From Actinomycetota bacterium (GTDB lineage Bacteria; Actinomycetota; Acidimicrobiia; Acidimicrobiales; SZUA-35): a stretch of DNA of 31,321 bases. A model generated the notes under the pieces. The model was given only the letters and a program-made list of their open reading frames with translations. It was not told the origin of the DNA and ran no database searches. Position 1 is the first letter of the stretch. Each line of letters opens with the position of its first letter. The DNA is taken from NCBI GenBank assembly GCA_027730885.1, contig JAQCHM010000001.1:1-31321 (forward strand). The letters run 5' to 3'. The translations under genes and the position numbers were made by a program. Of this stretch, positions 6,710 through 31,321 are shown piece by piece.

Positions 6710-6717
6710 GACCCTGC

Positions 6718-9057: not shown

Positions 9058-9076
9058 CCCCGATCGAGGCCGGGCG

Positions 9077-9082: not shown

Positions 9083-9088
9083 CGGCCC

Positions 9089-13327: not shown

Positions 13328-13475
13328 GGGTAGCCACCTACCCCAGACCCTTCCACCTGTCGTCGACCCTGTCCATTTCCCGGATTGCATCGGCCACTTC
13401 GCCGAGAGGACCAAGGACAATGGTGCCATGGAACAGCGGATTCTGCGGTGGGACGGTTCGGGTAAGCCGCATGAG

Positions 13476-13928: not shown

Positions 13929-14674
13929 CCACAACAACGACCATCACCGACACCGCTATCGCCGCCGACGCCTGCCGCCAACTCGCCCTCACCGGCCTCG
14001 CCCCAACACTCGACGAGCTCTGCACTGAGGCAATCCGCCGGCGGATCTCACACCCGAAGTTCCTCGCCGAGGCACTCCAGATCGAGCTCGACATCCGCCA
14101 CGAACGACGCCGCGCCCGGCGAGTCCACGAAGCACGCCTGCGACGGATCAAGACCCTCGACGAGTTCGACCTCGACGCCAACCCGAACATCACACCGTCA
14201 ACGATCGCGATGCTCCGCGACGGCACGTTCATCACCAACAACGAACCCGTCGTCCTCCTCGGCAACTCCGGCACCGGCAAAAGCCATCTGCTGATCGGCG
14301 CCTGCCTCGCCGCCGCCGAGAACGGTCTCAGGGTCCGCTACATCACCTGCGCCCAACTCGCCAACGAACGCGCCGAAGCCAACGACGACCACAAGCTGTC
14401 ACGCGTCGTTGCCCGCTACGGCCGCCACGACCTCCTCGCGATCGATGAACTCGGCTACGTCCGCTTGGACCAACACTCCGCCGAACTGCTCTTCCAGATC
14501 CTCACCGAACGAGAAGAACGAGCCGCCGTCGCAGTCGCCTCCAACGCCCCATTCAGCGAATGGTCAAAGACCTTCACCGACCCCCGCCTCGCCGCCGCGG
14601 TCGTCGACCGCATCACCTACCACGCCCACATCATCCAGACCGGCACTATCAGCTACAGGCTCAACAGCCGATAA
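13925..14674 (+). CDS. istB: IS21-family helper ATPase IstB
   Basis: Walker A GNSGTGKS, Walker B LLAIDELGY, ASNAPFSEW and AAVVDRIT. Confidence 0.95.
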   Translation: MTTTTTITDTAIAADACRQLALTGLAPTLDELCTEAIRRRISHPKFLAEALQIELDIRHERRRARRVHEARLRRIKTLDEFDLDANPNITPSTIAMLRDGTFITNNEPVVLLGNSGTGKSHLLIGACLAAAENGLRVRYITCAQLANERAEANDDHKLSRVVARYGRHDLLAIDELGYVRLDQHSAELLFQILTEREERAAVAVASNAPFSEWSKTFTDPRLAAAVVDRITYHAHIIQTGTISYRLNSR

Positions 14675-17937: not shown

Positions 17938-19218
17938 TCAGCGGCCGGGGATGCCCACCGGTGCGCTGCGGCCGCCGGCACGCGCCTTGGCCACGACGTC
18001 TCGGAGCGTGAACGGAGCGTCGAGTTCCTCGGCGCTCGAGTTGGGCCCGAGCTCGCCAACACGAACGTATTCGCCGCGGTCGGCCGCGAGTCGGAAGTCG
18101 ACGGTGGCGCCGGCCGCATCGCCGATCCCACCCGACGCCCCGAAACCGTGTCCCTCGTTGGTCTGCGTGCCCGTCGTCGCCTGGAAACCCATGCGCTGCA
18201 GCAGCTTGGGACTGGCTCGGCGCAGCACCTCCGGTCGGACCGACAGCATCCAGTTCTCCTGTTGGCGCAGCCACGACTTCTGCATGCCGTTCAACATGAC
18301 GACTCGCGGTTCGGTGGTGTGGTTGATGCCTGTCCCGTGCAGCAGTCGGCCATCGGTCAGCACCATCGTGCCCGCGGCTGCGTCGACATTGATGGCCGGT
18401 GGCAGCTTGCCAACCGGCTTGCCGGCGCGCACCGCCTCGGACAGCACCAGATGGCTGCCGGGGATGACGAGCGTGCCACCGTTGCTCGCGTCGATGTCCG
18501 TGAGGGGGGTGAGGATGTTCACCGACATCGGCGATCGAGAGTCAGGAGCGATGCCTCCCTGATCCTGGTGCAGCGCCTGGGGCACACCGCCTTCGAGAGA
18601 AATGGCGGCGATCAGCGAGGTGCAGATCCAGCCGGGACCGAGGGCTTCGGTCACCAGCTGTTCGACCAGAGGTCCGCCTTGGACGACATCTGGGTGTTGT
18701 TCGATGAAGAGCTCGAAGCAGCGGCCCTTGTTGACGCAGCAATTGATGTTCTGCCCGCTCGGCGTCTTCTGCGCGATGCCGGCACGCCGTTCACCTTCGG
18801 CTTGATCCAGCACACGGCGGAGAAGCAGCGCTACCTGTTGCGGCGATACGGCGTCCAGAATCTTGCAGTAACCCCACTCGAGCATGTCCCGGCGTAGCTG
18901 TTCGATGTTCCTCGTGGGTTGCGGCAGGCCGCGGTCTTTCCAGTACGGGTGCTCGTCACCGATGGTGGTGTCGTAGTAGGAGCCTGCCTTGAAGTCCCAC
19001 TGGCCCCACTCCGCGCCCCGCTTCGGTGGCACGAAGTGGATCTCGGGATTGTTCTCCAGGAGCGAACCCATGGGTTCCTTGGAACCCACCTGTTCGTGAT
19101 ACATGCAGGTTCCCGGCGCCGACTTGGCCCGGATGTAGTCCTCGTCGAACTCGCGGATCGCACGCAACTCGGCTCCTCTCGGCTGTGCGCTGGTGAACGG
19201 CTGTCTTCTGCTGAACAC
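17938..19218 (-). CDS. PhyH (phytanoyl-CoA dioxygenase)-family 2OG-Fe(II) oxygenase with long N-terminal extension
   Basis: QALHQDQ (HxD), NGGTLVIPGSH, LLHGTGIN and PRVVM. Start uncertain (GTG 19218). Confidence 0.85.
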   Translation of the reverse strand: MFSRRQPFTSAQPRGAELRAIREFDEDYIRAKSAPGTCMYHEQVGSKEPMGSLLENNPEIHFVPPKRGAEWGQWDFKAGSYYDTTIGDEHPYWKDRGLPQPTRNIEQLRRDMLEWGYCKILDAVSPQQVALLLRRVLDQAEGERRAGIAQKTPSGQNINCCVNKGRCFELFIEQHPDVVQGGPLVEQLVTEALGPGWICTSLIAAISLEGGVPQALHQDQGGIAPDSRSPMSVNILTPLTDIDASNGGTLVIPGSHLVLSEAVRAGKPVGKLPPAINVDAAAGTMVLTDGRLLHGTGINHTTEPRVVMLNGMQKSWLRQQENWMLSVRPEVLRRASPKLLQRMGFQATTGTQTNEGHGFGASGGIGDAAGATVDFRLAADRGEYVRVGELGPNSSAEELDAPFTLRDVVAKARAGGRSAPVGIPGR

Positions 19219-19286: not shown

Positions 19287-20570
19287 TCAGCGAATCAGGC
19301 GCACGGGCAGGACTCGCGGACCTCGGACCTGGCCGGTCGACCACCGAACGAGCGCAGGGTCGAGGAGCTCGAACTCGGGTAGGCGTTCCATCCAGGTTTC
19401 GATGGCGACGGAGACCTCGAGCCGGGCCAGATTCGAACCGAGGCAGCGGTGGATGCCCAGCCCGAAGGCGGTGTGGCGATTGACCTTGCGGTCGATGACG
19501 AACGTGTCGGCGTCTTCGAAGACCTCGGGGTCGCGGTTGGCCGCCGGGAACGGCAGCAGGACCCAGTTCCCCTCCTGGACCGGGCAGCCGCTCAGTTCGT
19601 GGTCGGTGGCCGCAATGCGGGCCATGGTCACCGGAGCGCAGAAGCGCAGGAACTCCTCGATGGCGAACGGTCGAACATCGGGATCCTCGATCCAGCGTCG
19701 ACGGTCGGCCGGGTTCTCGGCCAGGTGCCACAACGACGCCCCGATCGCCGACCACGTGGTGTCGATGCCGGCGATGAGGAGGAGGGCGATGGTTCCGCGC
19801 GCATGTTCGTCGAGCAGCGGCATGCCGTCGATGTCGACCGAGAGGAGGTAGTCGATCAGATCTCCGTCCTCGGGGGACCGGGGGTTGGCTCGGTGCTCGG
19901 CGACCTGAGTGTCGAGGTAGTAGTCGAGCGTCTCCTCGTGGGGCAACTCGCCCGCCTGGCCTGGGGCCTCGATCACCCGGTGGATGAACGTGCGGAATCG
20001 ACCCGCGTCGTGCTCGGGCAGTCCGAGCATGTTGGCGATGACCCGGACGGGAATGTTCTGGGCGTAGTCGATGGCCGCGTCCGCGATCGCCGTGTCCGTG
20101 GAGCTCGCGTTCTCGTCCGCCTTGGCCAACAAGTTGTCGATCAGCTCGTGACAGTAGGCCCGGGTCGATGCCTCCAGGGCGGCGATGGGCTTGGGCGCGA
20201 AGGGGGGAAGCAGCAGCCGCCGGGCGATGGCGTGGAACGGGGGGTCGGACGTGATCGGCGGCGCCGGACCCATCGGGGCGTCGACCTCGGGGCGGGGGCC
20301 AACGATCACGCCTTGCGAGGTGTAGTTGACGGTGTCGTGAGCGATGGCCTCGACGTCGGCGTGACGCACCGGAAGCCAGGTGCCTCCGAACCGCTGGGTG
20401 TGAGCGACTGGGCAGGCCTGACGAAGCTGCTCCCAGATCTCGGGTGCGGCCGCCGCGTAGTCGGGGTGCGTGTGATCGAAGTCGGTCTCCCAGTCGCGAA
20501 CGGGCAATGGTTCCTGGCCGGTCGGCAGGTCGATCGGTGCAGGTGTGGAGGAAGGTGGGCTCTGTGTCAT
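19287..20570 (-). CDS. Cytochrome P450
   Basis: I helix AGIDTT, EEFLR (ExxR), heme motif FGLGIHRCLG. Confidence 0.97.
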   Translation of the reverse strand: MTQSPPSSTPAPIDLPTGQEPLPVRDWETDFDHTHPDYAAAAPEIWEQLRQACPVAHTQRFGGTWLPVRHADVEAIAHDTVNYTSQGVIVGPRPEVDAPMGPAPPITSDPPFHAIARRLLLPPFAPKPIAALEASTRAYCHELIDNLLAKADENASSTDTAIADAAIDYAQNIPVRVIANMLGLPEHDAGRFRTFIHRVIEAPGQAGELPHEETLDYYLDTQVAEHRANPRSPEDGDLIDYLLSVDIDGMPLLDEHARGTIALLLIAGIDTTWSAIGASLWHLAENPADRRRWIEDPDVRPFAIEEFLRFCAPVTMARIAATDHELSGCPVQEGNWVLLPFPAANRDPEVFEDADTFVIDRKVNRHTAFGLGIHRCLGSNLARLEVSVAIETWMERLPEFELLDPALVRWSTGQVRGPRVLPVRLIR

Positions 20571-20690: not shown

Positions 20691-21152
20691 ATGGCCGCTT
20701 CCCTCGAGACCGAAACCGAGTACATGTCTCTGGCGTTGCGCGAGGCCCGGACGGCGCTCGAGCACGGCGATGTCCCGGTCGGTGCACTAGTGGTGAAGGA
20801 CGGGGTCGTCATTGCCAGCCGCCACAACGAGCGTGAGCTCACCGGTGACCCGACGGCCCACGCCGAGGTTCTTGCCCTCCGCGACGCCGCGGCCGCCGTT
20901 GGGGGCTGGCGCCTCGACGGGTGCACCCTCGTGGTGACCCTCGAACCATGTGTCATGTGTGCCGGCGCGGCGCTGGCGGCCCGGGTCGATCGCATCGTCT
21001 ACGGCGCAGCCGATCTCTCGGCGGGTGCGGTATTCAGTCTCTACAACGTCTGTGATGACCCGCGGCTGAATCACCGGCTCGAGGTGACGGCAGGTGTCCA
21101 GGCGGGCGAGTGCGCCGAGCTGCTCACCGGCTTCTTCGCCGACAAGCGTTAG
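20691..21152 (+). CDS. tadA: tRNA adenosine(34) deaminase
   Basis: DVPVGAL, DPTAHAE, TLEPCVMC; TACCCT -10 box (20679-20684) 6 nt before the ATG; next to tRNA-Ser(CGA). Confidence 0.95.
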   Translation: MAASLETETEYMSLALREARTALEHGDVPVGALVVKDGVVIASRHNERELTGDPTAHAEVLALRDAAAAVGGWRLDGCTLVVTLEPCVMCAGAALAARVDRIVYGAADLSAGAVFSLYNVCDDPRLNHRLEVTAGVQAGECAELLTGFFADKR

Positions 21153-21174
21153 CCGGCCGCCCGACCGGCGGGAT

Positions 21175-21900
21175 TCACGAGCCGAGGTGCTTGAGCGCTT
21201 CGCGTCTGGTCAACCCACTGAGCCGGCTGCCTCGGGCCTCGACGAACGATCGGACCTCGTCGGGGGCGACCCGCGCGTACTGCCGAAGTGCCCAGCCCAG
21301 GGCCTTGCGGATGAAGAACTCGTTGTCGGCCGAGCGGCGATCGACGTAGCGGAACAAGCGTTCGCGGTCGGTCGCTCGTCCGTAGGACAGTTGGTGCAGG
21401 ATGGCCGTTCGGGCGATCCAGAAGTCGTCGTCGTCGATCCACTCGTCCATGGTGGACACCAGTGCAGGTTGGGCCAGGACCATCGGACCGACGGTCCACG
21501 CGGCCAACGAGTCGACGGTGTCCCACCAAGACTTGGCGCGTAGCAGTTGCTCGACTCGCGGAAGGTGTTCCTGGCGGAGCATCGTGCCGTCCCTTCGAGT
21601 CGCCGCGGCCCGGAGCATGTCGGTGGCCACGTACTGGAACTCGCGCTCGGGTTCGGCCCAGCAGGCTTCGGCGAAGTCGAGCAACGCGTCGACGGCCGCG
21701 TCCCCGGTCGCCGTCCTCGCCCAGGTGATGAACCGACGCTGCTCGTGGCGACGATCAGCCGCGGTAACTCCGAGGAAGGGCGCGATGTCCTTCATGTAGG
21801 CACGCATGGCGTCGACCTTGCTCGGGTCGGCTACCGCAGTGAGGGCGGCTCTCAGCCAAGCGAGATCGAGGGCATCGGTGTGGTCGGTCAATCGAGCCAT
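21175..21900 (-). CDS. DNA alkylation repair protein, AlkD-like HEAT-repeat family
   Basis: AMRAYMK, EREFQYVA, KSWWDTVDSL, WIARTAI and EFFIRKALGWALRQY. Confidence 0.9.
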   Translation of the reverse strand: MARLTDHTDALDLAWLRAALTAVADPSKVDAMRAYMKDIAPFLGVTAADRRHEQRRFITWARTATGDAAVDALLDFAEACWAEPEREFQYVATDMLRAAATRRDGTMLRQEHLPRVEQLLRAKSWWDTVDSLAAWTVGPMVLAQPALVSTMDEWIDDDDFWIARTAILHQLSYGRATDRERLFRYVDRRSADNEFFIRKALGWALRQYARVAPDEVRSFVEARGSRLSGLTRREALKHLGS

Positions 21901-21944
21901 CCAATTCGTCGGCGCGTGATGGTCACGACGCTAAGCTCGTCGAC

Positions 21945-22035
21945 GGAAGGTTGCCAGAGCGGACGAATGGGGCGGCCTCGAAAGCCGTTGAGGTGCTTCG
22001 CATCTCCGGGGGTTCGAATCCCCCACCTTCCGCCA
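21945..22035 (+). tRNA. tRNA-Ser (anticodon CGA), CCA encoded
   Basis: Acceptor GGAAGGT/ACCTTCC, anticodon loop CTCGAAA, long variable arm, GGTTCGAATCC; TAAGCT -10 box upstream. Confidence 0.96.
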
Positions 22036-22070
22036 AGTTCCGCTCCTCGAGCGGCATGGCGCAGCCGACC

Positions 22071-22931
22071 TCAGGAGTGCTGCGTGAGAAACTCGATGCT
22101 GATCGGGTTGTAGAGCTCACGCCGTTCGTGCTGAGGCCAGTGGCCACACGTGCCCATCAGCTCGAGTCGGGAGTTGGAGATCGCCTCGTTCATGGCGGTG
22201 GCCTCGGGGATCTCGCCAAAGGGGTTCTCGTTGCCCCACACCACAAGTGTCGGAGCCGCAATGCTGTTGAGCCGTTCGGTCGTCATCAGGTTGCGTTGCC
22301 GGATCTCCATGTTCTGCAGGCAGAGCAGGTTGTGGAGGTTCGCCACGAATTCCGGCGTGTGGTAGATGGCATGACGGATCTCCACCAGCTCCTGGCTGAC
22401 ATCCTTCTCGCCGTCGAACATCAAGAGATGGAGCCGCTGTCGTGTGAGGTCCATGTCGTCCTCGGTCACCGCCTTGGTCGTCGAGTTCTTGATTCGCTCC
22501 ATGACCTCGGGGTTCGCCTTCGTGCCACCGGCGGCGATCAGTTGCAGGCTCTTCACGCGCTCGGGGTGCTCGCTGGCGAGCCAGCCCGAAACCCATCCAC
22601 CAAGCGACTCTCCGACGAAGTGGGCCGACTCGATTCCCTGGGCATCGAGATAGGCTACGAGGTGCTCCACGTAGCGCGGGATCTCGTAGTTGTAGTCGGG
22701 CTTGTCTGTGTAGCCGTGGCCGAGCATGTCGATCGCATGACAGCGAAAGCCGGCCTCGGCATGAGGGGCGATGTTGCGGCTGAACGCCTCGAGGTGCCCG
22801 CTCGTCCCATGGAGGAAGATCACGTCCTGCCCCTCGGGCGGTCCGGCAACCAGTGCTCGAGTCCGTACGCCCCCGGCATCGACGAAGCCGAGGCAGAAGC
22901 CGATGCCGGTCAGGTCGGTCCAGATCGTCAC
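22071..22931 (-). CDS. Alpha/beta hydrolase, MhpC/BphD-like meta-cleavage product hydrolase
   Basis: FLHGTSG, DMLGHG, nucleophile GESLGG, LVVWG and CGHWPQHE; GTGA overlap with the upstream gene. Confidence 0.88.
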   Translation of the reverse strand: MTIWTDLTGIGFCLGFVDAGGVRTRALVAGPPEGQDVIFLHGTSGHLEAFSRNIAPHAEAGFRCHAIDMLGHGYTDKPDYNYEIPRYVEHLVAYLDAQGIESAHFVGESLGGWVSGWLASEHPERVKSLQLIAAGGTKANPEVMERIKNSTTKAVTEDDMDLTRQRLHLLMFDGEKDVSQELVEIRHAIYHTPEFVANLHNLLCLQNMEIRQRNLMTTERLNSIAAPTLVVWGNENPFGEIPEATAMNEAISNSRLELMGTCGHWPQHERRELYNPISIEFLTQHS

Positions 22932-23881
22932 CTTTGTGCTCCCTCAGGGTCGATGACGGCGACGGCCATGCCGGTCAGCCACTCGGGCATCGCCGAGTAG
23001 ACGATCCTCTCGCCCGGAGCGTCTCCCAGAGCGGCGGCCATCGCAAGCCACGCTCGAACCTCGTTGCCGCCGTTTCCGGCCGTTGCCACGAGGCGCTCTT
23101 GGTCGTAACGCCGTCCCAGGTCGTACAGACGGCCTTCTTCGAGCAGGTCGAGGAGTTCGGCATCGAAGTCGGAGTTGAGCTGAGGTCGGGCGCCCACCAC
23201 GATCGGTCGACGACGTTCCTCGAACTCCGCCCACTTTCCGCGCCCCTCCCGGAAGGTGTGCGCGAGGAACTCTTCGTCGTCGCCGACCGGGTTGCGCCAG
23301 TCGGGGAACGGGATCTGGTGCGACAAGCCACCCGTACCGATGACGGCCACTCGGCGCGGCGCGTCGAGATCTCCAACCGATGATCTGATCGCCTTGCCAA
23401 GCGCGATACAGCGCTGGAGCGACGGCAGCGGAGGTCCGAACGTGTTGATCACAATGGGCACGACGGGTACACCCTCGGGAACGATGTACTGGATCGCGTG
23501 GGTGATCCCGTGGTCGACCTGGAGGTCCGTGGAGAAAGCGACATCGATGTCGCGTTCGAGCAGTCCCTCGCACAAGCGGAGCGCCGCGCCAGGGTCAACG
23601 GCCTGCGGGCCGCTGGGCGTACCGTGCTCGCCTACCCCGATGACCTGGTCGACCCCGATGGTGAACGCCGGCATCATGTCGAGCCAGAAACCGCGGAAGT
23701 GGTTCGAGCCGATGATCACGACGAGGTCGGGTCCGGCCGCTGTGAGGCGCGCGCGGGCAGTTCCGAGACCGTCACGAAAGGCGTGCGCCCGTTCGAGGTG
23801 GTCGACCTGGTCCCAGCGGGTGTTCATCAACGTCGCGTGCGAGGCGCCCACCCCGAAGACGATGCGACTTCTCGTGTTCAT
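22928..23881 (-). CDS. Class III extradiol dioxygenase, MhpB (2,3-dihydroxyphenylpropionate 1,2-dioxygenase)-like
   Basis: GASHA, GSNHFRGF, VDHG, TGGLSH and GNGGNEVRAW; ATGA overlap with the upstream gene. Confidence 0.88.
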   Translation of the reverse strand: MNTRSRIVFGVGASHATLMNTRWDQVDHLERAHAFRDGLGTARARLTAAGPDLVVIIGSNHFRGFWLDMMPAFTIGVDQVIGVGEHGTPSGPQAVDPGAALRLCEGLLERDIDVAFSTDLQVDHGITHAIQYIVPEGVPVVPIVINTFGPPLPSLQRCIALGKAIRSSVGDLDAPRRVAVIGTGGLSHQIPFPDWRNPVGDDEEFLAHTFREGRGKWAEFEERRRPIVVGARPQLNSDFDAELLDLLEEGRLYDLGRRYDQERLVATAGNGGNEVRAWLAMAAALGDAPGERIVYSAMPEWLTGMAVAVIDPEGAQR

Positions 23882-25152
23882 GCGTTCACGCCACACAGAT
23901 CAACGGCGATGCGGATGAGAAGACGGGTCAGACGTTGCATGTCGTCGACGTCCACCGCGTTCATGCCGAGTTGGAAGTCGACGGTCAACTTGTCCGGCGA
24001 CACCTTGGGAAGCCCCACTCGGGCCGTCGGTACCCCGAGGGCACGCAGGATGTTCGCGTCGGTAGCGCCGGATGTGCCACGGATCGGAGCGTGCTCGGCG
24101 TTGTTCAGTTGCTCCCAACATCGGATGGACGATCGGATCACGTCAGCATCGGGGCTCGTGGTCGTGCCGGGGATGACGAGCGTCTGGCGAACCTCGACGC
24201 TTGCGCCGATCTCGTTCGCCAGCTCCTCGACCTTGGCGCGGAACGCTGCCGCAGCCTCCTGACCTGTGGTCCTCGGACTGAGCCTCAGGTCGACCCAGAA
24301 CTTGCAACTCGCGGTGGTGAACGCCGGCATGTGCGGCCACCCACCCTGAATGGCAGCCACCACACCCTGGGGCTCGACGAGGCCGGAACGATGCTCTTCT
24401 GCCCATTCGGGGAACCACCGCTCCAGCCCAGCGACGATGTGGCCCGCGTCGGCGATGGCGTTTCGGTAGGGCAGCAAGTGGCGGCTCCCCACGTAGGTGT
24501 GGGTGCCGCCGACCTCGACTTCGAACCAGGTGAGGCCGACCTCTTCCCAGGAAATCGCCCAACCAGTCTTGGCGATCACGGCACAGTCGGGCCGAAGGAG
24601 GTCGACGAGCCGGCCACAGCCTTGACCATGTCCGTCGGGCAGGTCTGGCCGGCGGCGGTTGGTCGGCATTCCGCCTCCACCGAAGCCGATCAACAGATCA
24701 CCGACGAGGGGCGCGTTGCTCGCCGAGAGAGCTTCGGCCGCGGCCAAGACGCATGCGCCGTGGGCCTTGGGATTCTGGGCGCCAAGACCGATCACGAGCC
24801 CGGCGCGGACCTCGGCCGACGGCACCATGTCGTCGCGCAGTTCGGGTCCCGCCCACGGCAGGTCATCCTCGACGTGGCCGACAGTGACGGTGTCGATGGG
24901 GGCGTACAACAACAGCGCTGGCCCGCCACCCGAACCCGTCAGCCTGCCGTGCGCGTTTGTCATGTCCGCGACGACTGGCTGCACCTGCCCGGAAAGGCCG
25001 ACAGCCGTCATCTCAGCGGCCAACCTCTCGGCCAACGCGAGCTCGTCTCCCGTCGGAGAAGGTATTGATACCATGGTCGAGCACAGCTCGATCAATCGAT
25101 CGCGCGAAACCAACGCCTCGGCGTCGGCGACGACCGACGCAGCATCAGGCAT
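23878..25152 (-). CDS. M20/ArgE/DapE-fold protein with degenerate metal site
   Basis: Fold markers SIPSPTGDE, NAHGRL, LLL...IDTV, IGLGA..PK, IQGG and SGATDAN; canonical His/Asp/Glu ligands are replaced. Confidence 0.82.
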   Translation of the reverse strand: MPDAASVVADAEALVSRDRLIELCSTMVSIPSPTGDELALAERLAAEMTAVGLSGQVQPVVADMTNAHGRLTGSGGGPALLLYAPIDTVTVGHVEDDLPWAGPELRDDMVPSAEVRAGLVIGLGAQNPKAHGACVLAAAEALSASNAPLVGDLLIGFGGGGMPTNRRRPDLPDGHGQGCGRLVDLLRPDCAVIAKTGWAISWEEVGLTWFEVEVGGTHTYVGSRHLLPYRNAIADAGHIVAGLERWFPEWAEEHRSGLVEPQGVVAAIQGGWPHMPAFTTASCKFWVDLRLSPRTTGQEAAAAFRAKVEELANEIGASVEVRQTLVIPGTTTSPDADVIRSSIRCWEQLNNAEHAPIRGTSGATDANILRALGVPTARVGLPKVSPDKLTVDFQLGMNAVDVDDMQRLTRLLIRIAVDLCGVNA

Positions 25153-25264
25153 CCGGCGTACCGACCCACGTACCGGTGAATTTCGTCAAGAGGTGCACCA
25201 GGTAGGTACGCCCGGCGTAGGCGCCGGCTGCGAGTACGAGCAGCGCGAGTGGTCTCCTCATCAT
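25145..25264 (-). CDS. 39-aa hydrophobic peptide MMRRPLALLVLAAGAYAGRTYLVHLLTKFTGTWVGTPDA
   Basis: Fills the gap between the hydrolase stop (25272) and the M20 start; ATGCCTGA overlap with the next gene. Confidence 0.6.
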   Translation of the reverse strand: MMRRPLALLVLAAGAYAGRTYLVHLLTKFTGTWVGTPDA

Positions 25265-25271
25265 GTTGCTG

Positions 25272-26138
25272 TCACCGTTCTGTCTGTTCGAGGAAGCCAC
25301 GGACGACCGAATGGAAGTGCTGAGGCCGCTCCTCTTGGAGATGGTGCGACGCCTTGTCCATGACATAGAGCTGACCGCGATCGACCATCCGCGCCAGCAT
25401 CAATGGGTAGTCGGGGGTGAGGAAGTCGTCGTACATCCCCCAGGCGAAGAGCACCGGACACCTGATCTGTCCCAGCTCCTTGGTCATGTCCTGCCACTCA
25501 CCTCGAGGGCTGTCGGATCGGGCTGCGAGTTCGACTTCCTCCCTGTCGATCGACTGCTCGAAACGCATCGTCACGGTGTCGTCGGGAATCTCGTCGGCGT
25601 CGTACCACTCGAGGTCGGCCATCAGCTCGCGCATCTTCTCCCACGTCGGGCCGTCCGGTCCCCCGAAGTACCGATCCCGCGCCTTGCGGCCGCGCCGCGC
25701 TCCGTCGGGCAGCGGTGCAAGCGGCCCGTAGAAGACCGGCATCGATCCGGTGACGACGAGCGACCGGGTTCGATCGGGGAAGTTGGCTGCAAGGTTCAGC
25801 GCAATGGTGCCGCCCCAGCTGTTGCACACGAAGTCGGCCCGTTCGATGCCAAGGGCGTCCATGAGGTCGCAGATCGTCTTCGCATGGAAGTCCCACATCG
25901 GACCGGTGATCGTGCACTTCTCGGACTTGCCGTACTGCAACAGATCGACGAGGTAACAGGCACGTTCCGCAGCGAACAGCGGGGCAACAGGTCCGAAATC
26001 GCTCCACGCGGTGCAGCCGGGGCCGCCGCCATGCAGGAAGAATGTCGGTGGACCCTCGCCCATTTCGATCACGTGGTAGGCCAAACCCTTGGCGTCGACC
26101 ATGCGACCGACTGGTGCCGGTTGAATGACGTGCGGCAT
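25272..26138 (-). CDS. Alpha/beta hydrolase, BphD/CarC/OxoH-like
   Basis: FLHGGGPG, nucleophile CNSWGG, LFAWGMYD and ASHHLQEE; TGATG overlap with the Rieske gene. Confidence 0.88.
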   Translation of the reverse strand: MPHVIQPAPVGRMVDAKGLAYHVIEMGEGPPTFFLHGGGPGCTAWSDFGPVAPLFAAERACYLVDLLQYGKSEKCTITGPMWDFHAKTICDLMDALGIERADFVCNSWGGTIALNLAANFPDRTRSLVVTGSMPVFYGPLAPLPDGARRGRKARDRYFGGPDGPTWEKMRELMADLEWYDADEIPDDTVTMRFEQSIDREEVELAARSDSPRGEWQDMTKELGQIRCPVLFAWGMYDDFLTPDYPLMLARMVDRGQLYVMDKASHHLQEERPQHFHSVVRGFLEQTER

Positions 26139-27436
26139 CAGCGATCCACCCCCGGCGAGTTACTCGCATCGGTGACTGAGTTGCCCGGAGATACGTAGCC
26201 GTCGTCGAAGGGGTTGCCTTCCTCGATCATCCGCCGCCACTCGAGCAACGAGATGTCCGGTCGGTACAGCCGCTCGGGTGGCGCATCGGTGGCTTCGACC
26301 ATCCAGCCGTCCTGTCCGGAGAACTGTCCGTGGAACAGCCAGCGAATTCCGCCGAGGTACTTGGCAAAGAATCCTGCTTTGGCCAGGCCTTTCTTGAACT
26401 GGACCATCACGCCCACGTACTTGGTCTTGCCGTCCTCGATCGGAACGTAGAACTCGTAGTGGATGAATTGGGGATACGCGATGCGGAGGACGCCGGGCAT
26501 GCTGAGCGACGCAAACCCGGGGAGATCCTGGCTGACGATGTAGGGATCGTTCTTCTTCGCCCCACCGGTGTTGCCGAGCATCTTGCCCTGCTGTTGCCTC
26601 GGCTTCTTCTTCCACCAGCGGTAGTTCGTCCAGGTTCCCAGTCCGGGGAATTCGGCGTCCCAATGACGTTCGTCTTCGATCCGGTAGATCCACCGGCCGT
26701 GCCGTTCGATGTGCACCACATTCCAGGTGGGCATGGTCTTGAAGGTCCGCCAGTAGGACCTTCGGTGAAGGAACTTCGCATGGCCCTCGTCGAACCCGTT
26801 CTCGGCGTAGAGCCGCCAGTCGCCGTTGCGATCCTCGATCCGGCCGCCGACGGCGTACTTGGGTGGGTTGCGGAGTTCCTCGGGGAGTTGATCGCTGAGT
26901 GGGTGTGGGTCGCGGTCGCCGATGAATACCCAGACCAGACCGACGGCTTCAGCGACGGGAAAGATCTGGACACTGACCTTGCCGCACATCGGTGAGTCGG
27001 GGCCGTCGGTGATGACGGCGACCAATTCCCCGGTGCTGAGGTCGAAGGTCCACGCGTGGTAGGGGCAGGTGACCGTGCTTGGGAACTCCTCGGTGCCCAT
27101 GGACAACGGCACACCTCGGTGGGGGCAGCGGTCGTGCAGGCCATGGGCGACCCCATCGGCGTCGCGTTGGAGCATGAGGTCCTCGCCGCACACCCGGACG
27201 GCGACTGGTTTCCGGCGGAGCTCTGCCGACCAGAACACCGGGTACCAGTAGTTGCGCAGGCCGTTGGCCGCCGCGTCGTACTCGGGCCACGAACTCCAGT
27301 CGGCACGTCCGGTCGCTTTCTTGGCTGCGTCTCCGCGTTTGCGGCTCGCCATCACCGCGGCCAGGCGGTCAGCAGAGTCAGTGCCAATGGCAACCGTCGT
27401 CTCACTCGTCGTCTCGGTGTCGTCGATCGTCATCAT
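26138..27436 (-). CDS. Rieske non-heme iron oxygenase, CarAa/OxoO (carbazole / 2-oxoquinoline) type
   Basis: GLRNYWYPV, Rieske CPH...CPYH, WRLYAENGFDEGHAKFLH (mononuclear Fe His pair) and a distal Asp in GQDGW. Confidence 0.9.
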   Translation of the reverse strand: MMTIDDTETTSETTVAIGTDSADRLAAVMASRKRGDAAKKATGRADWSSWPEYDAAANGLRNYWYPVFWSAELRRKPVAVRVCGEDLMLQRDADGVAHGLHDRCPHRGVPLSMGTEEFPSTVTCPYHAWTFDLSTGELVAVITDGPDSPMCGKVSVQIFPVAEAVGLVWVFIGDRDPHPLSDQLPEELRNPPKYAVGGRIEDRNGDWRLYAENGFDEGHAKFLHRRSYWRTFKTMPTWNVVHIERHGRWIYRIEDERHWDAEFPGLGTWTNYRWWKKKPRQQQGKMLGNTGGAKKNDPYIVSQDLPGFASLSMPGVLRIAYPQFIHYEFYVPIEDGKTKYVGVMVQFKKGLAKAGFFAKYLGGIRWLFHGQFSGQDGWMVEATDAPPERLYRPDISLLEWRRMIEEGNPFDDGYVSPGNSVTDASNSPGVDR

Positions 27437-27460
27437 GACCTCTTGTCGTGGTCAGGTTGG

Positions 27461-28615
27461 CTAGATGTAGCCGCGCTCGGGTTCGCGGCCGAAGAAGACT
27501 GCACCGGCATTCTTGAGCGTCATCTCGCCCATGAACGCGTGTTGGGTGGGCAGGTGGACGTCGCGAAAGCAGCGCGACAAGTGGTTCGAGTTCTCCGCAG
27601 CGGCCATGCCGGAAACGCTGTACGCGGCATCGACGACGGCGGCGCACTCACGGGTCACATGGGTACAGGAGAGCCGCATCATGTTGCGGGTCTCGATGTC
27701 GAGCTCTTGGCCCTTGACGAGTTTGTCCCATGCCGTGTCGATGGAGTCGTAGAAGAACAGCCGGGCGCTTCGGAGTCGAGCCTCGGCCTTGGCCATTTCG
27801 ATCTGGATGTATTCGCGGTCGCCGATGTTGGGGGCGCCGGTCGCCGACAGGGCGCCATCAGGCTTGCCCGCTGACCGCACGATGTTCATTGCCTCTCGTG
27901 CAACGCCGATCGAAGTCACGGCCAGGACTTGGGCCGCGATCGTGATGGTTGGATAACGGAAGAAGGGGCCATCCGGCGTCAGCGGAGCACCTCGAACGAA
28001 CGTCCATTCCGGATCGACCAGCACATCCTCGACGACGATGTCGAAGCTTCCGGTTCCGGCCATGCCGTGCATGTCCCAGGATCCGGTATCGATCTGCACC
28101 TGGGATGCCGGCATCACCGCCATGCGTGGCAGCGCTCCCTCTTCGTTCGGGACGATTCCAACGCCGATGCGGTCAGCGGAGGTGCAGCCGCTCGCCCAAC
28201 GCCAACGACCGTTGAGCAAGTACTTGCCGTCGACGACCTCGGCCTTTTGCAACGGGAACATCGCGCCGGCGAATACGGCATCGGGATCGCTCCACGTCTC
28301 GTGCACCGATTCGAGCGGAAGGCCGCCGAGATAGGCCTCGCAGACGCCAAAGCTGGCAACCCATCCGGCCGAGCCGTCGGCCTCCGAGATTGCCTCGATC
28401 GCAACGAGGAACTCCGTCGGCGACCGCTCGCCTCCACCAAAGGCCCGCGGCACGAAGGCGCGGTAGATCCCGATCTCACGGAATCGATCGATGATGTCGG
28501 CCGAGACGAAGTGCTGGTCGGCAAACTCCGAACGACGAGCCCGGATGTCGGCGAGCAGAGCGTCGAAGGCGGCCGCGCCGCCCCAAAGTTCCTTGTCGAG
28601 TTTTGGACCGCTCAT
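27461..28615 (-). CDS. Acyl-CoA-dehydrogenase-fold flavin-dependent monooxygenase, IacA/HsaA-like
   Basis: ERSPTEF, ADGSAGWVASFG, GRWRWASGC, GMAGTGS and RCFRDVH; ATG at 28615 with RBS GAAGGGA. Confidence 0.88.
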   Translation of the reverse strand: MSGPKLDKELWGGAAAFDALLADIRARRSEFADQHFVSADIIDRFREIGIYRAFVPRAFGGGERSPTEFLVAIEAISEADGSAGWVASFGVCEAYLGGLPLESVHETWSDPDAVFAGAMFPLQKAEVVDGKYLLNGRWRWASGCTSADRIGVGIVPNEEGALPRMAVMPASQVQIDTGSWDMHGMAGTGSFDIVVEDVLVDPEWTFVRGAPLTPDGPFFRYPTITIAAQVLAVTSIGVAREAMNIVRSAGKPDGALSATGAPNIGDREYIQIEMAKAEARLRSARLFFYDSIDTAWDKLVKGQELDIETRNMMRLSCTHVTRECAAVVDAAYSVSGMAAAENSNHLSRCFRDVHLPTQHAFMGEMTLKNAGAVFFGREPERGYI

Positions 28616-28694
28616 CGTGTCCCTTCTGTTCGCGCCCCCTGCGCTTTGATTCTGTCGACATCCTCCCTGGCCCTGACAGCCAATGCCACCCTGT

Positions 28695-28713
28695 CGGTTC
28701 GCTGAGCGAACCG
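28695..28713. promoter_or_regulatory. Perfect palindrome; candidate IclR (PcaR-type) operator
   Basis: CGGTTCGCT-G-AGCGAACCG, between the IclR stop and the operon start. Confidence 0.65.
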
Positions 28714-28740
28714 CGATGTGGGCGCAGGTGAGCGGCGCTG

Positions 28741-29514
28741 TCACACTGGCATCGACGCGCCGAGGCGCCGGCTGAGCCCAGCGGCGGCAAGTCGCACGAG
28801 CGGCGTCAGCGCGGTGGCATCGAGTTCGTCGATACCGCCGGTCACCGAAATCGCGCCGACGAGCTGATTGCCCAGCTCGAACACCGGTGCACCAACCGAC
28901 ATCAACCCCGCAAACACTTCGCCGATCTCGGTTGCCACGCCATCGAGTCGAACCTGGTCGAGCAGTCGTCGTAGCTCGTCGCCTTCCCCTACTGATCGCG
29001 CGGTGCGTTGGGTCAGCCCCGCCGCGACGACCTGCTCGAACAGTTCGGCGGGTCCGAATGCCAGGAGGCACCGTCCGGTGGCCGTGCAGTGCAGAGGTAG
29101 TCGCGACGCGACCGAGGATGGGACTTCTCGCGTCGACCGTCCTGGAAGTCGCTCGACGTACATCACGTCGAGCCCATCGAGCACAGCGAGGTGCACGGTC
29201 TGGCCGCTTGCGACCGACAGATCCTCGAGAAAGTGGAGAGCGGCGTCGCGCAGCAATCGACGGGCGGGGACGCGGCTGCCGAGTTCGAACAAGAGGGAGC
29301 CCAGCCGAAATGCGTCACCGGCGCGCTGGACGACGCCCCAGGCCACGAGCTCGCCGCACAAGCGATGGACGGTTGCTTTCGACAGGTCGGTTCGTCGTGC
29401 GAGCTCGGACAGGCCCAGCACCCCGCCTGATTCGGCGAGCGCGTTCAGGATCAGGCGGACCTTGCCAATCACGGTGTGGGGTGCCGGTGGTTTCACCGGA
29501 CGGGCACCAGCCAT
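28741..29514 (-). CDS. IclR-family transcriptional regulator
   Basis: HTH GLSELARRTDLSKATVHRL, LPLHCTATGR and SVGAPVF...GAISV. Confidence 0.93.
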   Translation of the reverse strand: MAGARPVKPPAPHTVIGKVRLILNALAESGGVLGLSELARRTDLSKATVHRLCGELVAWGVVQRAGDAFRLGSLLFELGSRVPARRLLRDAALHFLEDLSVASGQTVHLAVLDGLDVMYVERLPGRSTREVPSSVASRLPLHCTATGRCLLAFGPAELFEQVVAAGLTQRTARSVGEGDELRRLLDQVRLDGVATEIGEVFAGLMSVGAPVFELGNQLVGAISVTGGIDELDATALTPLVRLAAAGLSRRLGASMPV

Positions 29515-29629
29515 CACAACGGCACCCTTGCCTCTCGATCGGCCACCATTGCCGTCCGAATCTACCGGCTTCGACCCCACCGGACTTACCGGTACCGTTG
29601 GCCCTACGACGACAAGGAGCGTGGGGACG

Positions 29630-31288
29630 ATGGCACAAGCCGGGGTAGCAGTAGTGGAGGAAGCGGCTGAGGTCGCGAACGTGGAACGACACGATGTGGT
29701 GGTTGTCGGCGCAGGCGTGTCCGGGATCTACCAGATCAAGCGACTGGCCGACCTCGGTGTCGATGCCGTGCTCCTCGAAGGTGACGACGACCTGGGCGGC
29801 ACCTGGTACCGGAACCGCTACCCCGGGGCTCGCTTCGACTCCGAGAGCTACACGTACGGGTACTCCTTCTCCAAGGAGCTGCTCGACGAATGGCACTGGA
29901 AGGAGAGGTTCTCGGCCCAGCCGGAGAACCTGAGGTACCTGAACTACGTGGCCGACAAGTTCGAGCTCCGTCGGCACATGCGGTTCAATTCCCGGGTCGA
30001 GCGGATGACCTGGAACGAGGCCGAGCGGACGTGGCGCGTCGACCTCCAGGGCGGTGGCGCCTATGTCGCTCGGTTCGTCATCACCAGTCTCGGACCCCTG
30101 TCGATGCCGACGTTCCCCAGCTACCCGGGCATGGACGAGTTCGAAGGCGAGTCGTTCCACACCTATTGGTGGCCCAAGGAGTCCGTCGCGCTGGAAGGGC
30201 GTCGGATCGGCGTCATCGGCACCGGGGCCACGGGCATCCAGGTCATCAGCGAGATCGCCGACAAGGTCGGCCAGCTCACGGTCTTCCAGCGTCGCCCCAA
30301 CTGGAGCACTCCGCTGAACAACGCTGCCATCTCCGACGAGGAGATGGCAGCGATTCGGGCCCGCTACGACGAGATCTTCGCCAACTGCGCCAAGTCCCCC
30401 GGTGGGTTCGAGCACGTTCCGGACCGCCGCGGCTTCTGGAGCCTGACGGCCGAGGAACGACGTCAAACCTGGGACGAGCTCTACGACCAGCCTGGATTCG
30501 CCATCCTCTCGGCCAACTTCCTGGAGATCTTCTTCGATGAGGCGGCCAACAACGAGATGTCCGAGTACATCGCCGACCGCATCCGCCGGCGAGTGAATGA
30601 CCCAGTCGTCGCCGAGAAGCTCATCCCCAAGGATCACGGGTTCGGCATGCAGCGTCTGCCGCTCGAGACCCGCTACTTCGAGGCCTACAACCGCGACAAC
30701 GTGAAGCTCGTCAGCCTGGCCGAGACCCCGATCGAACGGTTCATGCCCACCGGGATCCAGACCACCGACGCCGCCTACGAACTCGACGTCATCGTGTACG
30801 CCACAGGATTCGACGCCATCACCGGCGGTTACGACCGCATCGAGATCGTCGGAGTCGACGGCCAGAAGCTGGCGGAGAAGTGGCGCGACAGCCCGAGCAC
30901 CTACCTCGGAGTCCTCTCCCACGGCTTCCCGAATCTGTTCATGGTGGCAGGACCCCAGAGCGTCTCGGGTTCGACCAACTTCCCTCGAGCCATCGAGACC
31001 GGCGTCGACTGGCTCACCGGCCTGCTGCAACACGTCATGAACGACGACTGCACCCGAGTCGAAGCCGAGCCCGACGCCGAGGAAGGTTGGGTCGGTGAAG
31101 TCGTGTCGGCCCACGAGCGCATGTTGTTCCGACGCAGCAAGGGATGGTTCACCGGCTACAACTCCAATGTTGCCGGTCACCAGGAAGGCCACGTCCGCTA
31201 TCAGGCCTTCTTCGGCGGTGCGCCCAAGTACACCAAGACGATCGCCGGCATCGCCGCCGACGGCTACCGCGGCATCGATCTCCGCTAA
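29630..31288 (+). CDS. Type I Baeyer-Villiger monooxygenase
   Basis: GAGVSG, GGTWYRNRYPGARFD, fingerprint FEGESFHTYWW, GTGATG and VYATGF; RBS AAGGAG. Confidence 0.95.
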   Translation: MAQAGVAVVEEAAEVANVERHDVVVVGAGVSGIYQIKRLADLGVDAVLLEGDDDLGGTWYRNRYPGARFDSESYTYGYSFSKELLDEWHWKERFSAQPENLRYLNYVADKFELRRHMRFNSRVERMTWNEAERTWRVDLQGGGAYVARFVITSLGPLSMPTFPSYPGMDEFEGESFHTYWWPKESVALEGRRIGVIGTGATGIQVISEIADKVGQLTVFQRRPNWSTPLNNAAISDEEMAAIRARYDEIFANCAKSPGGFEHVPDRRGFWSLTAEERRQTWDELYDQPGFAILSANFLEIFFDEAANNEMSEYIADRIRRRVNDPVVAEKLIPKDHGFGMQRLPLETRYFEAYNRDNVKLVSLAETPIERFMPTGIQTTDAAYELDVIVYATGFDAITGGYDRIEIVGVDGQKLAEKWRDSPSTYLGVLSHGFPNLFMVAGPQSVSGSTNFPRAIETGVDWLTGLLQHVMNDDCTRVEAEPDAEEGWVGEVVSAHERMLFRRSKGWFTGYNSNVAGHQEGHVRYQAFFGGAPKYTKTIAGIAADGYRGIDLR

Positions 31289-31321
31289 CCCCGCACTGTT
31301 CTGCCGGATGGGCGCGTCGGA

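Follow-up and report, generated by a model that had tools for sequence, protein, structure and literature searches.

The 8-hydroxycoumarin route and an actinobacterial gene cluster

Quinoline and its azaarene relatives pollute many environments, and quinolone alkaloids occur commonly as natural products. One path of quinoline degradation, the 8-hydroxycoumarin route, was recognised decades ago through its metabolites. It leads from quinoline through 2-quinolinone and 8-hydroxy-2-quinolinone to 8-hydroxycoumarin, with release of ammonium, and on through 2,3-dihydroxyphenylpropionate to meta-cleavage (PMC9029321). In a Rhodococcus the route and its ammonium release have been reported without genes (PMC9029321), and in Pseudomonas putida 86 XenA is the 8-hydroxycoumarin reductase (PMC5519977). 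The accessible literature assigns genes of the route for Qor, OxoOR and XenA only, and none for the conversion of 8-hydroxy-2-quinolinone into 8-hydroxycoumarin and ammonium (PMC9029321, PMC5519977, PMC11945285). Here we describe a gene cluster on contig JAQCHM010000001.1 of an Actinomycetota bacterium, which sequence comparison makes moderately likely to be an actinobacterial (Acidimicrobiia, Ilumatobacter-like) counterpart of this oxo/qor route for 2(1H)-quinolinone-type benzo-fused lactams.

The window, meaning the whole stretch of DNA analysed, is one entire contig of 31.3 kb (C200). It belongs to a metagenome-assembled genome (MAG) of 3.39 Mb that is 87% complete. Eight intact open reading frames (ORFs) on the minus strand of the window run in one direction from 29514 down to 22071. 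They encode, in order, an IclR-family regulator, a flavin monooxygenase of acyl-CoA dehydrogenase (ACAD) fold, a Rieske oxygenase, an alpha/beta hydrolase (Hyd1), a micro-protein, an M20-like protein, a LigB-type extradiol dioxygenase and a second hydrolase (Hyd2). The recurring gene set is called the cassette below, and its genes are single-copy in the MAG. An earlier, sequence-only reading had described seven of these genes beside an IclR gene, and all are present and intact. That reading had also called the pathway complete, which does not hold: the window contains no ferredoxin or reductase for the Rieske protein, no flavin reductase for the monooxygenase and no lower pathway of the mhpD/E/F type, all of which are found beside the cassettes of relatives. 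A match to an already characterised pathway, which would have spoken against the reading, did not turn up. In the openly accessible literature we found neither a characterised cassette nor an assigned nitrogen-eliminating step of the 8-hydroxycoumarin route; an earlier mention of the hydrolase or M20 ORFs in subscription-journal work on the P. putida 86 cluster is possible.

Counterparts in proteobacterial quinoline operons

The link to quinoline catabolism comes from the M20-like protein. A tblastn search of plasmids with it returned one distant match (35%), in Cupriavidus necator C39. Two genes upstream of this M20 gene lies the gene of a true OxoO orthologue (E 3e-259, about 85% identical to PDB 1z01), and the locus reads OxoO, OxoR-type reductase, M20, amidase. 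An mhpB-D-F-E-C operon, with products 54% and 68% identical to Escherichia coli MhpB and MhpC, is 3.8 kb off. The C39 M20 protein has many homologues in Cupriavidus, Paraburkholderia, Pseudomonas and sphingomonads, and the surroundings that were read follow the same theme. Sphingobium sp. EM0848 and Rhizorhabdus histidinilytica carry, in this order, qorM-S-L, coxG, OxoO, OxoR, M20, a zinc alcohol dehydrogenase (Zn-ADH), a cupin, an amidase and a group of LigB, hydrolase and short-chain dehydrogenase/reductase (SDR) genes. Paraburkholderia hiiakae has OxoO-OxoR-M20-amidase, and Pseudomonas sp. AN-1 has OxoO, an alpha/beta hydrolase and an amidase, followed farther on by OxoR-M20-...-amidase, an extradiol dioxygenase and a hydrolase.

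Between these oxoO operons and the cassette, identities are 39% for Hyd1, 44% for Hyd2, 35-40% for the M20-like protein, 33% for LigB and 27-32% for the Rieske protein. Each enzyme of the cassette can thus be paired with one from operons centred on a 2-oxoquinoline 8-monooxygenase that biochemistry and structure have validated. The likeness extends to organisation: both groups have an alpha-only Rieske oxygenase, a Hyd1-like hydrolase (directly after oxoO in AN-1), an M20 protein of the same subfamily, an MhpB-like LigB enzyme and a Hyd2-like hydrolase (in Rhizorhabdus), and some members of both have a molybdenum hydroxylase upstream.

The two groups differ in several respects. Cassette relatives carry a Pyr_redox_2 reductase and a 4Fe-4S-type ferredoxin as redox partners, whereas qor-oxo operons use a fused reductase of the OxoR type. 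An amidase-signature enzyme and a cupin are usual in the proteobacterial operons and rare with the cassette, while the micro-protein and a set of His/Cys invariants of the M20-like protein are found with the cassette only. The regulator is IclR-type in the cassette and MarR- or AraC-type in the qor-oxo operons. Orthology between the Zn-ADH genes linked to the cassette and those of the proteobacterial operons was considered and rejected, as identity is at most 31% over partial alignments.

The proteobacterial operons (L102:1401-17197, L105:2266-17085, L093/L099 of C. necator C39, L103, L104) share a conserved uncharacterised block of M20-like, Zn-ADH, small cupin and amidase-signature genes, flanked by oxoOR and the mhpB/mhpC-type genes. 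In Pseudomonas sp. AN-1 there are, in addition, genes for a styrene-monooxygenase-like protein and an accompanying flavin reductase, and a gene resembling Asp/Glu racemase.

The Rieske oxygenase

The Rieske protein matches the Pfam Rieske domain with 66 bits and PF11723, the catalytic domain of CarAa/OxoO-type homotrimeric ring hydroxylases, with 53.4 bits against a cut-off of 24.4, the best stretch covering the first 58 profile positions only. Its closest solved structures are the CarAa proteins of Nocardioides aromaticivorans (6e-46), Sphingomonas (6e-41) and Pseudomonas (4e-37), followed by OxoO (5e-31). The CxH...CxxH motif and the His/His/Asp iron ligands of the 2-His-1-carboxylate site, aligned with CarAa of pCAR1, are invariant in 72 cassette orthologues. 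The cluster contains no gene for a small (beta) subunit. In a maximum-likelihood tree the cassette Rieske proteins form a group with CarAa and OxoO (100/100), set against five further Rieske paralogues from this genome; the tree does not resolve the order inside the group. Placement in the CarAa/OxoO group, as the sequence-only reading had proposed from motifs, is upheld, and the alternative grouping with KshA steroid enzymes finds no footing, since no KshA structure appears among the solved relatives at E <= 0.001.

Within the group the protein stands apart. It is 27-32% identical over its full length to four OxoO orthologues, and proteobacterial orthologues reach 74-86% to OxoO of P. putida 86. 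Against CarAa of pCAR1 it is 39% identical over the N-terminal 180 residues, while the C-terminal catalytic half barely aligns (22%, E 4e-4). Judged by these identities, it is not an OxoO orthologue and represents a separate clade.

Ring cleavage and the two hydrolases

The LigB protein (Pfam LigB, PF02900, 118.7 bits) has as its closest solved relative 2,3-dihydroxyphenylpropionate/2,3-dihydroxycinnamate 1,2-dioxygenase, 8k04 (7e-37). It is 32% identical to E. coli MhpB (5e-42) and 29% to CarBb (1e-31), and the MhpB residues H10, H53, D114, H115, H179 and E271, which include the acid-base trio Asp114/His115/His179 and the iron-ligand histidines, are kept in 78 of 78 orthologues. The best NCBIfam MhpB model, NF009909, scores 187.4 bits and does not reach its cut-off of 286. 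By these comparisons the enzyme is MhpB-like and not proven to be MhpB.

The two hydrolases are described in MhpC numbering, with a reference set consisting of the Ser-Asp-His triad and the dienoate-binding residues Asn49, Asn109, Phe173, Arg188 and Trp264. Hyd1 aligns over its full length with BphD, MhpC and HsaD. It retains Ser-Asp-His and Arg188, and the changes Asn49 to Asp, Phe173 to Glu and Trp264 to His are invariant in 43 orthologues. Its identity to the hydrolase directly after the OxoO orthologue in Pseudomonas sp. AN-1 is 39% (1.5e-63); that hydrolase is 29% identical to MhpC and shares the His-His and Cys261-to-Ala signature of Hyd1. The gene order in AN-1 agrees with the sequence-only reading, in which oxoO of P. 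putida 86 is followed by the alpha/beta-hydrolase gene oxoH. A search for a source name such as 'OxoH' for this kind of hydrolase gave automatic annotations only. We propose that Hyd1 may act as a lactam (C-N) hydrolase.

Hyd2 aligns over its full length with meta-cleavage-product (MCP) hydrolases, its best solved relatives being CumD, BphD, HsaD and CarC. Ser, His, Arg188, Cys261 and Trp264 are retained, Asn109 is Glu, and the Asp235 column holds Asn with a Glu adjacent. Hyd2 is 44% identical (4e-87) to the LigB-adjacent hydrolase of the Rhizorhabdus qor-oxo operon. Both hydrolases miss the NCBIfam equivalog cut-offs; by their residues both are atypical, and Hyd2 fits the MCP hydrolase family better than Hyd1.

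The E. coli mhp operon (mhpR-mhpABCDFE) is a useful point of reference for this half of the cluster. The two systems resemble each other in an IclR-type regulator, a LigB enzyme nearest to MhpB with D114, H115 and H179, an MCP-type hydrolase after it and a flavin monooxygenase able to feed a hydroxyphenyl acid into a catechol. They differ in that LigB is only 32% identical to MhpB and Hyd2 29% to MhpC, below the equivalog cut-offs, that the monooxygenase is of ACAD fold and not of the MhpA type, and that the window has no mhpD/E/F genes. The Rieske, Hyd1, micro-protein and M20 genes have no mhp counterpart.

The car operon of pCAR1 (carAa-carBaBb-carC) offers another comparison, with the CarAa fold family, a LigB-type dioxygenase and an MCP-type hydrolase in common. 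Were the cassette a carbazole-type pathway, its Rieske enzyme would attack a diaryl-amine or a compound like 2-aminobiphenyl by angular dioxygenation, LigB and one hydrolase would play the parts of CarB and CarC, and the M20-like protein would deaminate or deacylate an anthranilate-type product. CarAa proteins are indeed the best solved relatives of the Rieske protein by E-value, especially that of N. aromaticivorans, and Hyd2 is about equally close to CarC and MhpC (29% each). The order of Rieske gene then hydrolase gene may also recall actinobacterial car clusters. Yet LigB resembles MhpB more than CarBb, a gene for a CarBa-like subunit is missing, two hydrolases are conserved beside a single ring-cleavage enzyme, and the counterparts of the M20 subfamily, Hyd1 and Hyd2 sit in oxoO operons, whereas the pCAR1 car region has no M20 gene. 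The molybdenum hydroxylase front ends described below would be pointless for carbazole. We regard a carbazole-type pathway as very improbable, and of the quinolinone-, indole- or carbazole-like substrates suggested from the sequence alone, carbazole is the weakest and a quinolinone type is the one that the oxoO operons favour.

The M20-like protein and its micro-protein

The M20-like protein scores 23.6 bits against Pfam Peptidase_M20 (PF01546), just under the cut-off of 24.6. At the canonical M20 metal and catalytic positions (HxD, bridging D, EE, E, H) its family invariantly has YAPID, NPK, GGGMP and IAK. It has the M20 fold and is not a canonical M20 metallopeptidase of the ArgE/DapE type. 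Its closest solved relative is 5-nitroanthranilate aminohydrolase NaaA (4e-19), which is also the top match in Swiss-Prot. An AlphaFold2 model (pLDDT 90.8) submitted to Foldseek retrieves NaaA first (TM 0.83-0.84, E 8e-33), before every other M20 enzyme. With a mean column identity of 60%, the family is among the best-conserved proteins of the set.

Two clades can be distinguished, one in the cassette and one in the proteobacterial oxoO/oxoR operons. They have 54 invariant positions in common, including YAPIDT, GLGxxNPK, GGMP, K195, E204 and Y220, as well as D288-x-R290, T-D365, R370 and R378. The residues H131, C134, C179, H218, R224 and H225 occur in the cassette clade only, and it is this clade that comes with the micro-protein.

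NaaA is known to exchange an aromatic amino group for a hydroxyl group by hydrolysis, which is the reaction that the proposed pathway requires of the M20-like protein. The Bradyrhizobium sp. enzyme (PDB 5K8M-5K8P; Swiss-Prot D3WZ85) is thus the nearest solved and the nearest reviewed relative, and in both proteins Asn-x-Lys replaces the bridging Asp of classical M20 enzymes. Identity between them is only 23%, and NaaA has acidic residues at the 'EE' and Glu positions where the cassette protein has Gly and Lys. To our knowledge NaaA has no micro-protein partner gene. From sequence and model together, we propose that the M20-like protein is a candidate hydrolytic aryl-amine deaminase.

Directly before the M20 gene, a micro-ORF counterpart of 29-50 codons occurs in at least 75 of 80 loci from four phyla. 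Two types of product are recognised. Type 1 (Acidimicrobiia, Gammaproteobacteria, Bacteroidota) ends in ...LVHLLTKxTGTWVGTP and type 2 (actinomycetes) in ...RTTMTQVHRINQ; they align in register about one invariant Thr. The N-terminal hydrophobic helix is not universal, which speaks against a mere membrane anchor. The micro-ORF keeps with the M20 gene where the latter is split from the rest of the cassette (L055, L058, L074), its differences fall most often on the third codon position, and roughly half of the codons that differ are synonymous. It is a real gene. The micro-protein has no Pfam or NCBIfam match, and the micro-ORF is absent from the proteobacterial oxo-linked operons. Gene linkage suggests a physical association with the M20-like protein; complex prediction from alignments of both (score 0.00, partner pLDDT 34-36) says nothing for or against binding.

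A bolder proposal, possible in our view and rather short of probable, is that the M20-like protein and the adjacent micro-protein form an enzyme of a new type, which cleaves aryl-amine C-N bonds by hydrolysis. Related to NaaA but without the canonical M20 metal site, it would carry out nucleophilic aromatic substitution on an amino-hydroxy-cinnamate without nitro activation, and its cousins in oxoO operons would be the missing nitrogen-eliminating enzyme of the 8-hydroxycoumarin route.

The M20-like protein also bears on whether nitrogen is involved at all. The cassette might serve a nitrogen-free aromatic pathway for coumarin- or melilotate-type phenylpropanoids or a steroid-like phenol, with the M20-like protein as a dead scaffold or in an unrelated hydrolysis. 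The lost metal ligands would suit this, as would the top NCBIfam matches, the steroid enzymes HsaA and HsaD together with MhpB (each under its cut-off), and the CoA-dependent side-chain enzymes common beside the cassette. Degradation of 7-hydroxycoumarin in Pseudomonas mandelii likewise begins with a Zn-ADH-type reductase and a hydrolase (PMC7913881). A dead scaffold fits poorly, though, with the strong purifying selection seen in the column identity and the positions common to both clades, with the presence of the M20 gene in 80 of 80 loci, and with its relatives standing between oxoOR and the amidase in quinoline operons. XDH-family molybdenum hydroxylases, moreover, typically hydroxylate N-heteroaromatic rings, and among solved structures no likeness to KshA came up. 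A nitrogen-free pathway appears quite improbable. Its steroid (Hsa/Ksh) version was rejected, the NCBIfam HsaA and HsaD scores being far under the cut-offs and KshA similarity being absent.

Among the loci, two show interrupted matches. In an Acidimicrobiales MAG the M20 gene matches in two pieces (L069:10001-11276, as 10001-10885 and 10938-11276), and in Actinomadura sp. 9N407 the Rieske gene does so (L070:4113-5199). These may be frameshifts, pseudogenes or assembly errors.

A conserved module with alternative front ends

A scan with an M20 pattern, taking one genome per species, found the protein in 543 GTDB species. Neighbours were counted within 10 kb in the 80 best loci, some of which are cut short by contig ends. 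Rieske genes are present in 76 of the 80 loci, Hyd1 in 65, LigB in 77, Hyd2 in 74 and IclR in 60. The loci span four phyla, with Actinomycetota, Gammaproteobacteria, Alphaproteobacteria and Bacteroidota among the groups named; the hosts include Acidimicrobiia, Streptomyces, Actinomadura, Nonomuraea, Rhodococcus, Nocardia, several Gammaproteobacteria, Croceicoccus and one Saprospiraceae. Gene order varies and the gene set is constant. Recurrence of this set across 80 loci and four phyla places the arrangement far beyond chance, and the synteny search bears out the cassette as a conserved module, the enzyme partners occurring in 65-77 of the 80 loci. The nearest cassettes belong to uncultured Ilumatobacter/Acidimicrobiales MAGs; identities to one of them (L011) are 89% for Rieske, 88% for Hyd1, 72% for M20, 75% for LigB and 82% for Hyd2.

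Further neighbours recur. A Zn-ADH is found in 46 loci and a Pyr_redox_2 reductase with a small 4Fe-4S-type ferredoxin in 45 (one such pair is at L027:14960-16296); 40 loci have a third alpha/beta hydrolase, 29 an NMT1-type ATP-binding cassette (ABC) transporter and 15-21 mhpD/E/F-like genes. Such neighbours would supply what is missing from the window. An amidase-signature gene is near the cassette in 3 of the 80 loci. In Streptomyces, Actinomadura and Rhodococcus (L034, L053, L027, L068 and others), a two-domain family III CoA-transferase of about 780 residues, an enoyl-CoA hydratase, an SDR, a pair of MaoC-like hydratases and an AMP-ligase recur beside the cassette.

Two alternative front ends are seen. 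In eight loci the cassette has genes of an XDH-family molybdenum hydroxylase close by, in four of them immediately upstream of the Rieske gene (L015, L017, L019, L022, with Acidimicrobiia among the hosts). The other is the ACAD-type monooxygenase, whose orthologues (61-77% identical) occur in 6 of the 80 loci besides the window. This protein matches Pfam Acyl-CoA_dh_2 with 83 bits and NCBIfam HsaA with 157.7 against a cut-off of 450, and its closest solved relatives are Rv3094c (3e-44), HsaA (1e-33) and C2-HpaH (8e-24). In two loci (L044 and L056) a flavin reductase gene follows its orthologue; the best flavin reductase candidate in the MAG is on contig C286. HsaA and C2-HpaH are enzymes that convert phenols to catechols. 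By analogy, the ACAD-fold enzyme most likely lets a mono-hydroxyphenyl acid or related phenol into the catechol stage, as MhpA does, and this is the least secure of the assignments. The sequence-only reading had counted the monooxygenase as a member of the pathway; occurring in so few loci, it is instead an accessory gene for a front end or side entry and not a core step.

The variety of front ends and neighbours raises an alternative substrate. The cassette may follow the same logic (hydroxylate, open the hetero-ring, lose nitrogen, meta-cleave) on a different benzo-fused N-heterocycle, the side chain then being processed as a CoA thioester. Candidates would be an oxindole or indole derivative, a substituted or 4-hydroxy-2-quinolone alkaloid, 3,4-dihydro-2-quinolinone, or a quinoxalinone- or benzoxazolinone-type lactam. 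The distance of the Rieske protein from OxoO and the two front ends both agree with this. So do the genes for a CoA ligase, a transferase and hydratases that Streptomyces and Actinomadura often have next to the cassette. There is also a precedent, since xanthine-oxidase and Rieske chemistry together open a benzo-diazine in the Nocardioides lumichrome pathway (PMC12746152). Yet each proteobacterial counterpart examined is centred on an OxoO orthologue, often with a qorMSL-ordered hydroxylase, and a LigB enzyme nearest to MhpB with mhpD/E/F-like genes nearby implies release of unsubstituted 2-hydroxypentadienoate. The Lum enzymes, moreover, come from other families. On balance another N-heterocycle is unlikely, if the likeliest of the alternatives to a quinolinone-type lactam.

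The lumichrome (riboflavin) operon of Nocardioides simplex is like the cassette in being actinobacterial and in its sequence of reactions, in which a molybdenum hydroxylase makes a lactam, a Rieske enzyme opens the N-ring to an amino-catechol, and extradiol cleavage and nitrogen loss follow (PMC12746152). It differs in having an alpha/beta Rieske oxygenase (LumCD), another dioxygenase (LumE) and cobalt-dependent and cupin hydrolases, and it lacks M20, MCP hydrolases and the micro-protein (PMC12746152). Lumichrome or riboflavin catabolism by the cassette itself, a thought prompted by nearby NMT1-type binding proteins and a P450, was rejected on the ground that the Lum enzymes belong to other families.

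A proposed pathway and its standing

What is observed is which genes are present, that their catalytic residues are intact, that the module is conserved and that it matches the OxoO operons one to one; all substrates and reactions of the cassette are inferred. In the route we favour, for quinolinone-type lactams, the alpha-only Rieske oxygenase would hydroxylate the benzene ring beside the ring nitrogen, as OxoO does at C8, with ferredoxin and reductase encoded elsewhere. Hyd1, through its Asp/Glu/His pocket, would then open the lactam to a 2-amino-3-hydroxy-cinnamate-type acid, a step that an amidase may take in most Proteobacteria. The M20-like protein, probably together with the micro-protein, would replace the aromatic amino group by hydroxyl with loss of ammonium, in the manner of NaaA, giving 2,3-dihydroxycinnamate in equilibrium with 8-hydroxycoumarin. 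The MhpB-like LigB enzyme would cleave this catechol, and Hyd2 would turn the ring-fission product into 2-hydroxypentadienoate and fumarate or succinate. Where a locus is fuller, a branch of reduction and lactone opening could come from its Zn-ADH and third hydrolase.

Several observations agree with this route. The intact catalytic residues of the Rieske protein, LigB and both hydrolases count in its favour, and the nearest relative of LigB, deposited as taking both the cinnamate and the propionate forms, fits the ring-cleavage step. The suggestion, made from the sequence alone, that the hydrolase and the M20-fold protein supply lactam opening and nitrogen loss in a quinolinone-type route gains considerably from the counterparts in oxoO operons, the XDH genes upstream in some loci and the likeness to NaaA.

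A number of points weigh against the route. CarAa and OxoO are about 40% identical (E 1e-90), far closer to each other than either is to the cassette Rieske protein, and given the low identity of the latter to OxoO, it may have another regiochemistry and substrate. Neither the window nor the 87%-complete MAG showed a close partner of the ferredoxin or reductase kind, and the only molybdenum hydroxylases are distant or lie on other contigs. Amide hydrolysis by Hyd1 is conjecture, its lineage being one of C-C hydrolases, and Pseudomonas sp. AN-1 has a Hyd1-like hydrolase as well as amidases. NaaA keeps the His of HxD (HLD), GEID and AEAT, where the M20-like protein has Pro for His, GGGM and AKTG, and the NaaA substrate is nitro-activated whereas the one proposed here is not. 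The CoA ligase, transferase and hydratase neighbours are not needed by a simple quinolinone route, and in aquatic and soil hosts natural alkaloids are likelier substrates than coal-tar quinoline. As far as sequence can tell, either of Hyd1 and the M20-like protein could cleave either C-N bond.

Gene layout and regulation

The coordinates of the cluster are collected in Table 1. As first described from the sequence, the junctions are mostly overlapping or nearly contiguous. The Rieske and Hyd1 genes meet in TGATG with an overlap of 1 nt, and 7 nt separate Hyd1 from the micro-ORF. The junction of micro-ORF and M20 gene is ATGCCTGA, with an overlap of 8 nt that suggests translational coupling. 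The M20 and LigB genes overlap by 19 nt, provided that the GTG at 23896 is the LigB start, and LigB and Hyd2 overlap in GTGA. The ACAD-to-Rieske spacer is 24 nt, and the IclR gene alone is set apart, 125 nt from the ACAD gene. No terminator-like site was found on the minus strand within the cluster.

Table 1. Positions of the gene cluster and its upstream spacer in the window
Feature	Position	Strand	Size	Basis
IclR-family transcriptional regulator	28741..29514	-	257 aa, ATG at 29514	Pfam
IclR-ACAD spacer, presumed promoter/operator (inferred)	28616..28740	-	125 nt	sequence
ACAD-fold flavin monooxygenase, probably group D two-component, oxygenase subunit	27461..28615	-	384 aa	Pfam, structures
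Rieske non-haem iron oxygenase, alpha-only, CarAa/OxoO-type	26138..27436	-	432 aa	Pfam, structures, tree
Hyd1, alpha/beta hydrolase, meta-cleavage-product hydrolase lineage, altered pocket	25272..26138	-	288 aa	
Micro-ORF, conserved micro-protein gene	25145..25264	-	39 aa	comparative
M20-fold protein, distinct subfamily	23878..25152	-	424 aa	fold, sequence
LigB-type (class III) extradiol dioxygenase, MhpB-like	22928..23896	-	322 aa	Pfam, structures
Hyd2, probable meta-cleavage-product (C-C) hydrolase	22071..22931	-	286 aa	structures, residues

The regulator matches Pfam HTH_IclR (51.4 bits) and IclR_C (111.5 bits), both above cut-off, and its top NCBIfam match is the PcaR/PcaU/PobR subfamily, under cut-off. 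The spacer before the ACAD gene contains no inverted repeat of at least 10 nt, no sigma-70-like site and no operator that we could find; one weak 10-nt repeat lies at the start of the IclR gene. The best reading, and a reasonably probable one, is that the cluster forms a single transcription unit under IclR control. On the 3' side, ARAGORN places a tRNA-Ser(CGA) gene at 21945-22035 (+), convergent with the operon and 36 nt past the Hyd2 stop. The operon is closed off by it at the 3' end, and it could be a site at which the cluster integrated. A scan of 21000-31321 at Rfam gathering thresholds, the tRNA-Ser region and the spacer included, gave no match.

Surrounding genes and the wider genome

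Outside the cluster, the window holds further oxidative genes. An FMO/Baeyer-Villiger-type flavin monooxygenase gene at 29603-31288 (+) diverges from the IclR gene and nearly reaches the contig end; it has about 16 paralogues in the MAG and is no recurrent neighbour of the cassette elsewhere. A DNA-alkylation-repair gene (21175-21900) is followed downstream by a cytochrome P450 gene at 19287-20570 (-) and a PhyH-family dioxygenase gene at 17938-19218 (-), and the region 5822-9967 encodes a TauD-type oxygenase, a luciferase-like monooxygenase, a glyoxalase-fold protein and a family III CoA-transferase. At 13925-14674 (+) an IS21-type IstB ATPase gene adjoins an apparently truncated MFS transporter ORF (12149-12790, 213 aa), which suggests disruption by an insertion sequence at 12149-14674.

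Elsewhere in the MAG, Qor-like subunits are found on contig C178 only, with identities of 36% (L), 39% (M) and 61% (S). The genome has at least 12 paralogues of the molybdenum hydroxylase large subunit. One of them, of the XDH family, lies 1.5 kb from another Rieske gene on contig C235 (C235:95-4566; L003, L094). This large subunit is 40% identical to the cassette-linked one and the Rieske protein 36% to the N-terminal half of the cassette Rieske protein, and the locus is possibly a second one for N-heterocycles. Sequencing runs matching the window are labelled aquatic metagenome, and the source sample is probably among them; estuary and marine runs contain only small shares of it. No RNA dataset containing the window is among the matching runs listed.

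Significance for azaarene catabolism

The cassette resembles a diverged form of the bacterial quinoline route, with a probably new enzyme subfamily, and its conserved micro-protein is an unannotated component of a catabolic operon. For the nitrogen-release step that has no assigned gene, the comparison names a set of candidates: a hydrolase of the Hyd1 or 'OxoH' type, or an amidase, together with the M20-like protein. This candidate set is present both in operons with a true OxoO and in an uncharacterised actinobacterial cassette. At least 543 species have the latter, and many are Streptomyces that can be cultured; S. antibioticus DSM 40234 is one cassette-bearing isolate. If the M20-like protein is a deaminase, it would be only the second known enzyme family member for hydrolytic substitution of an aromatic amine, and would work without the usual M20 metal ligands, which would make it relevant to enzyme mechanism and biocatalysis.

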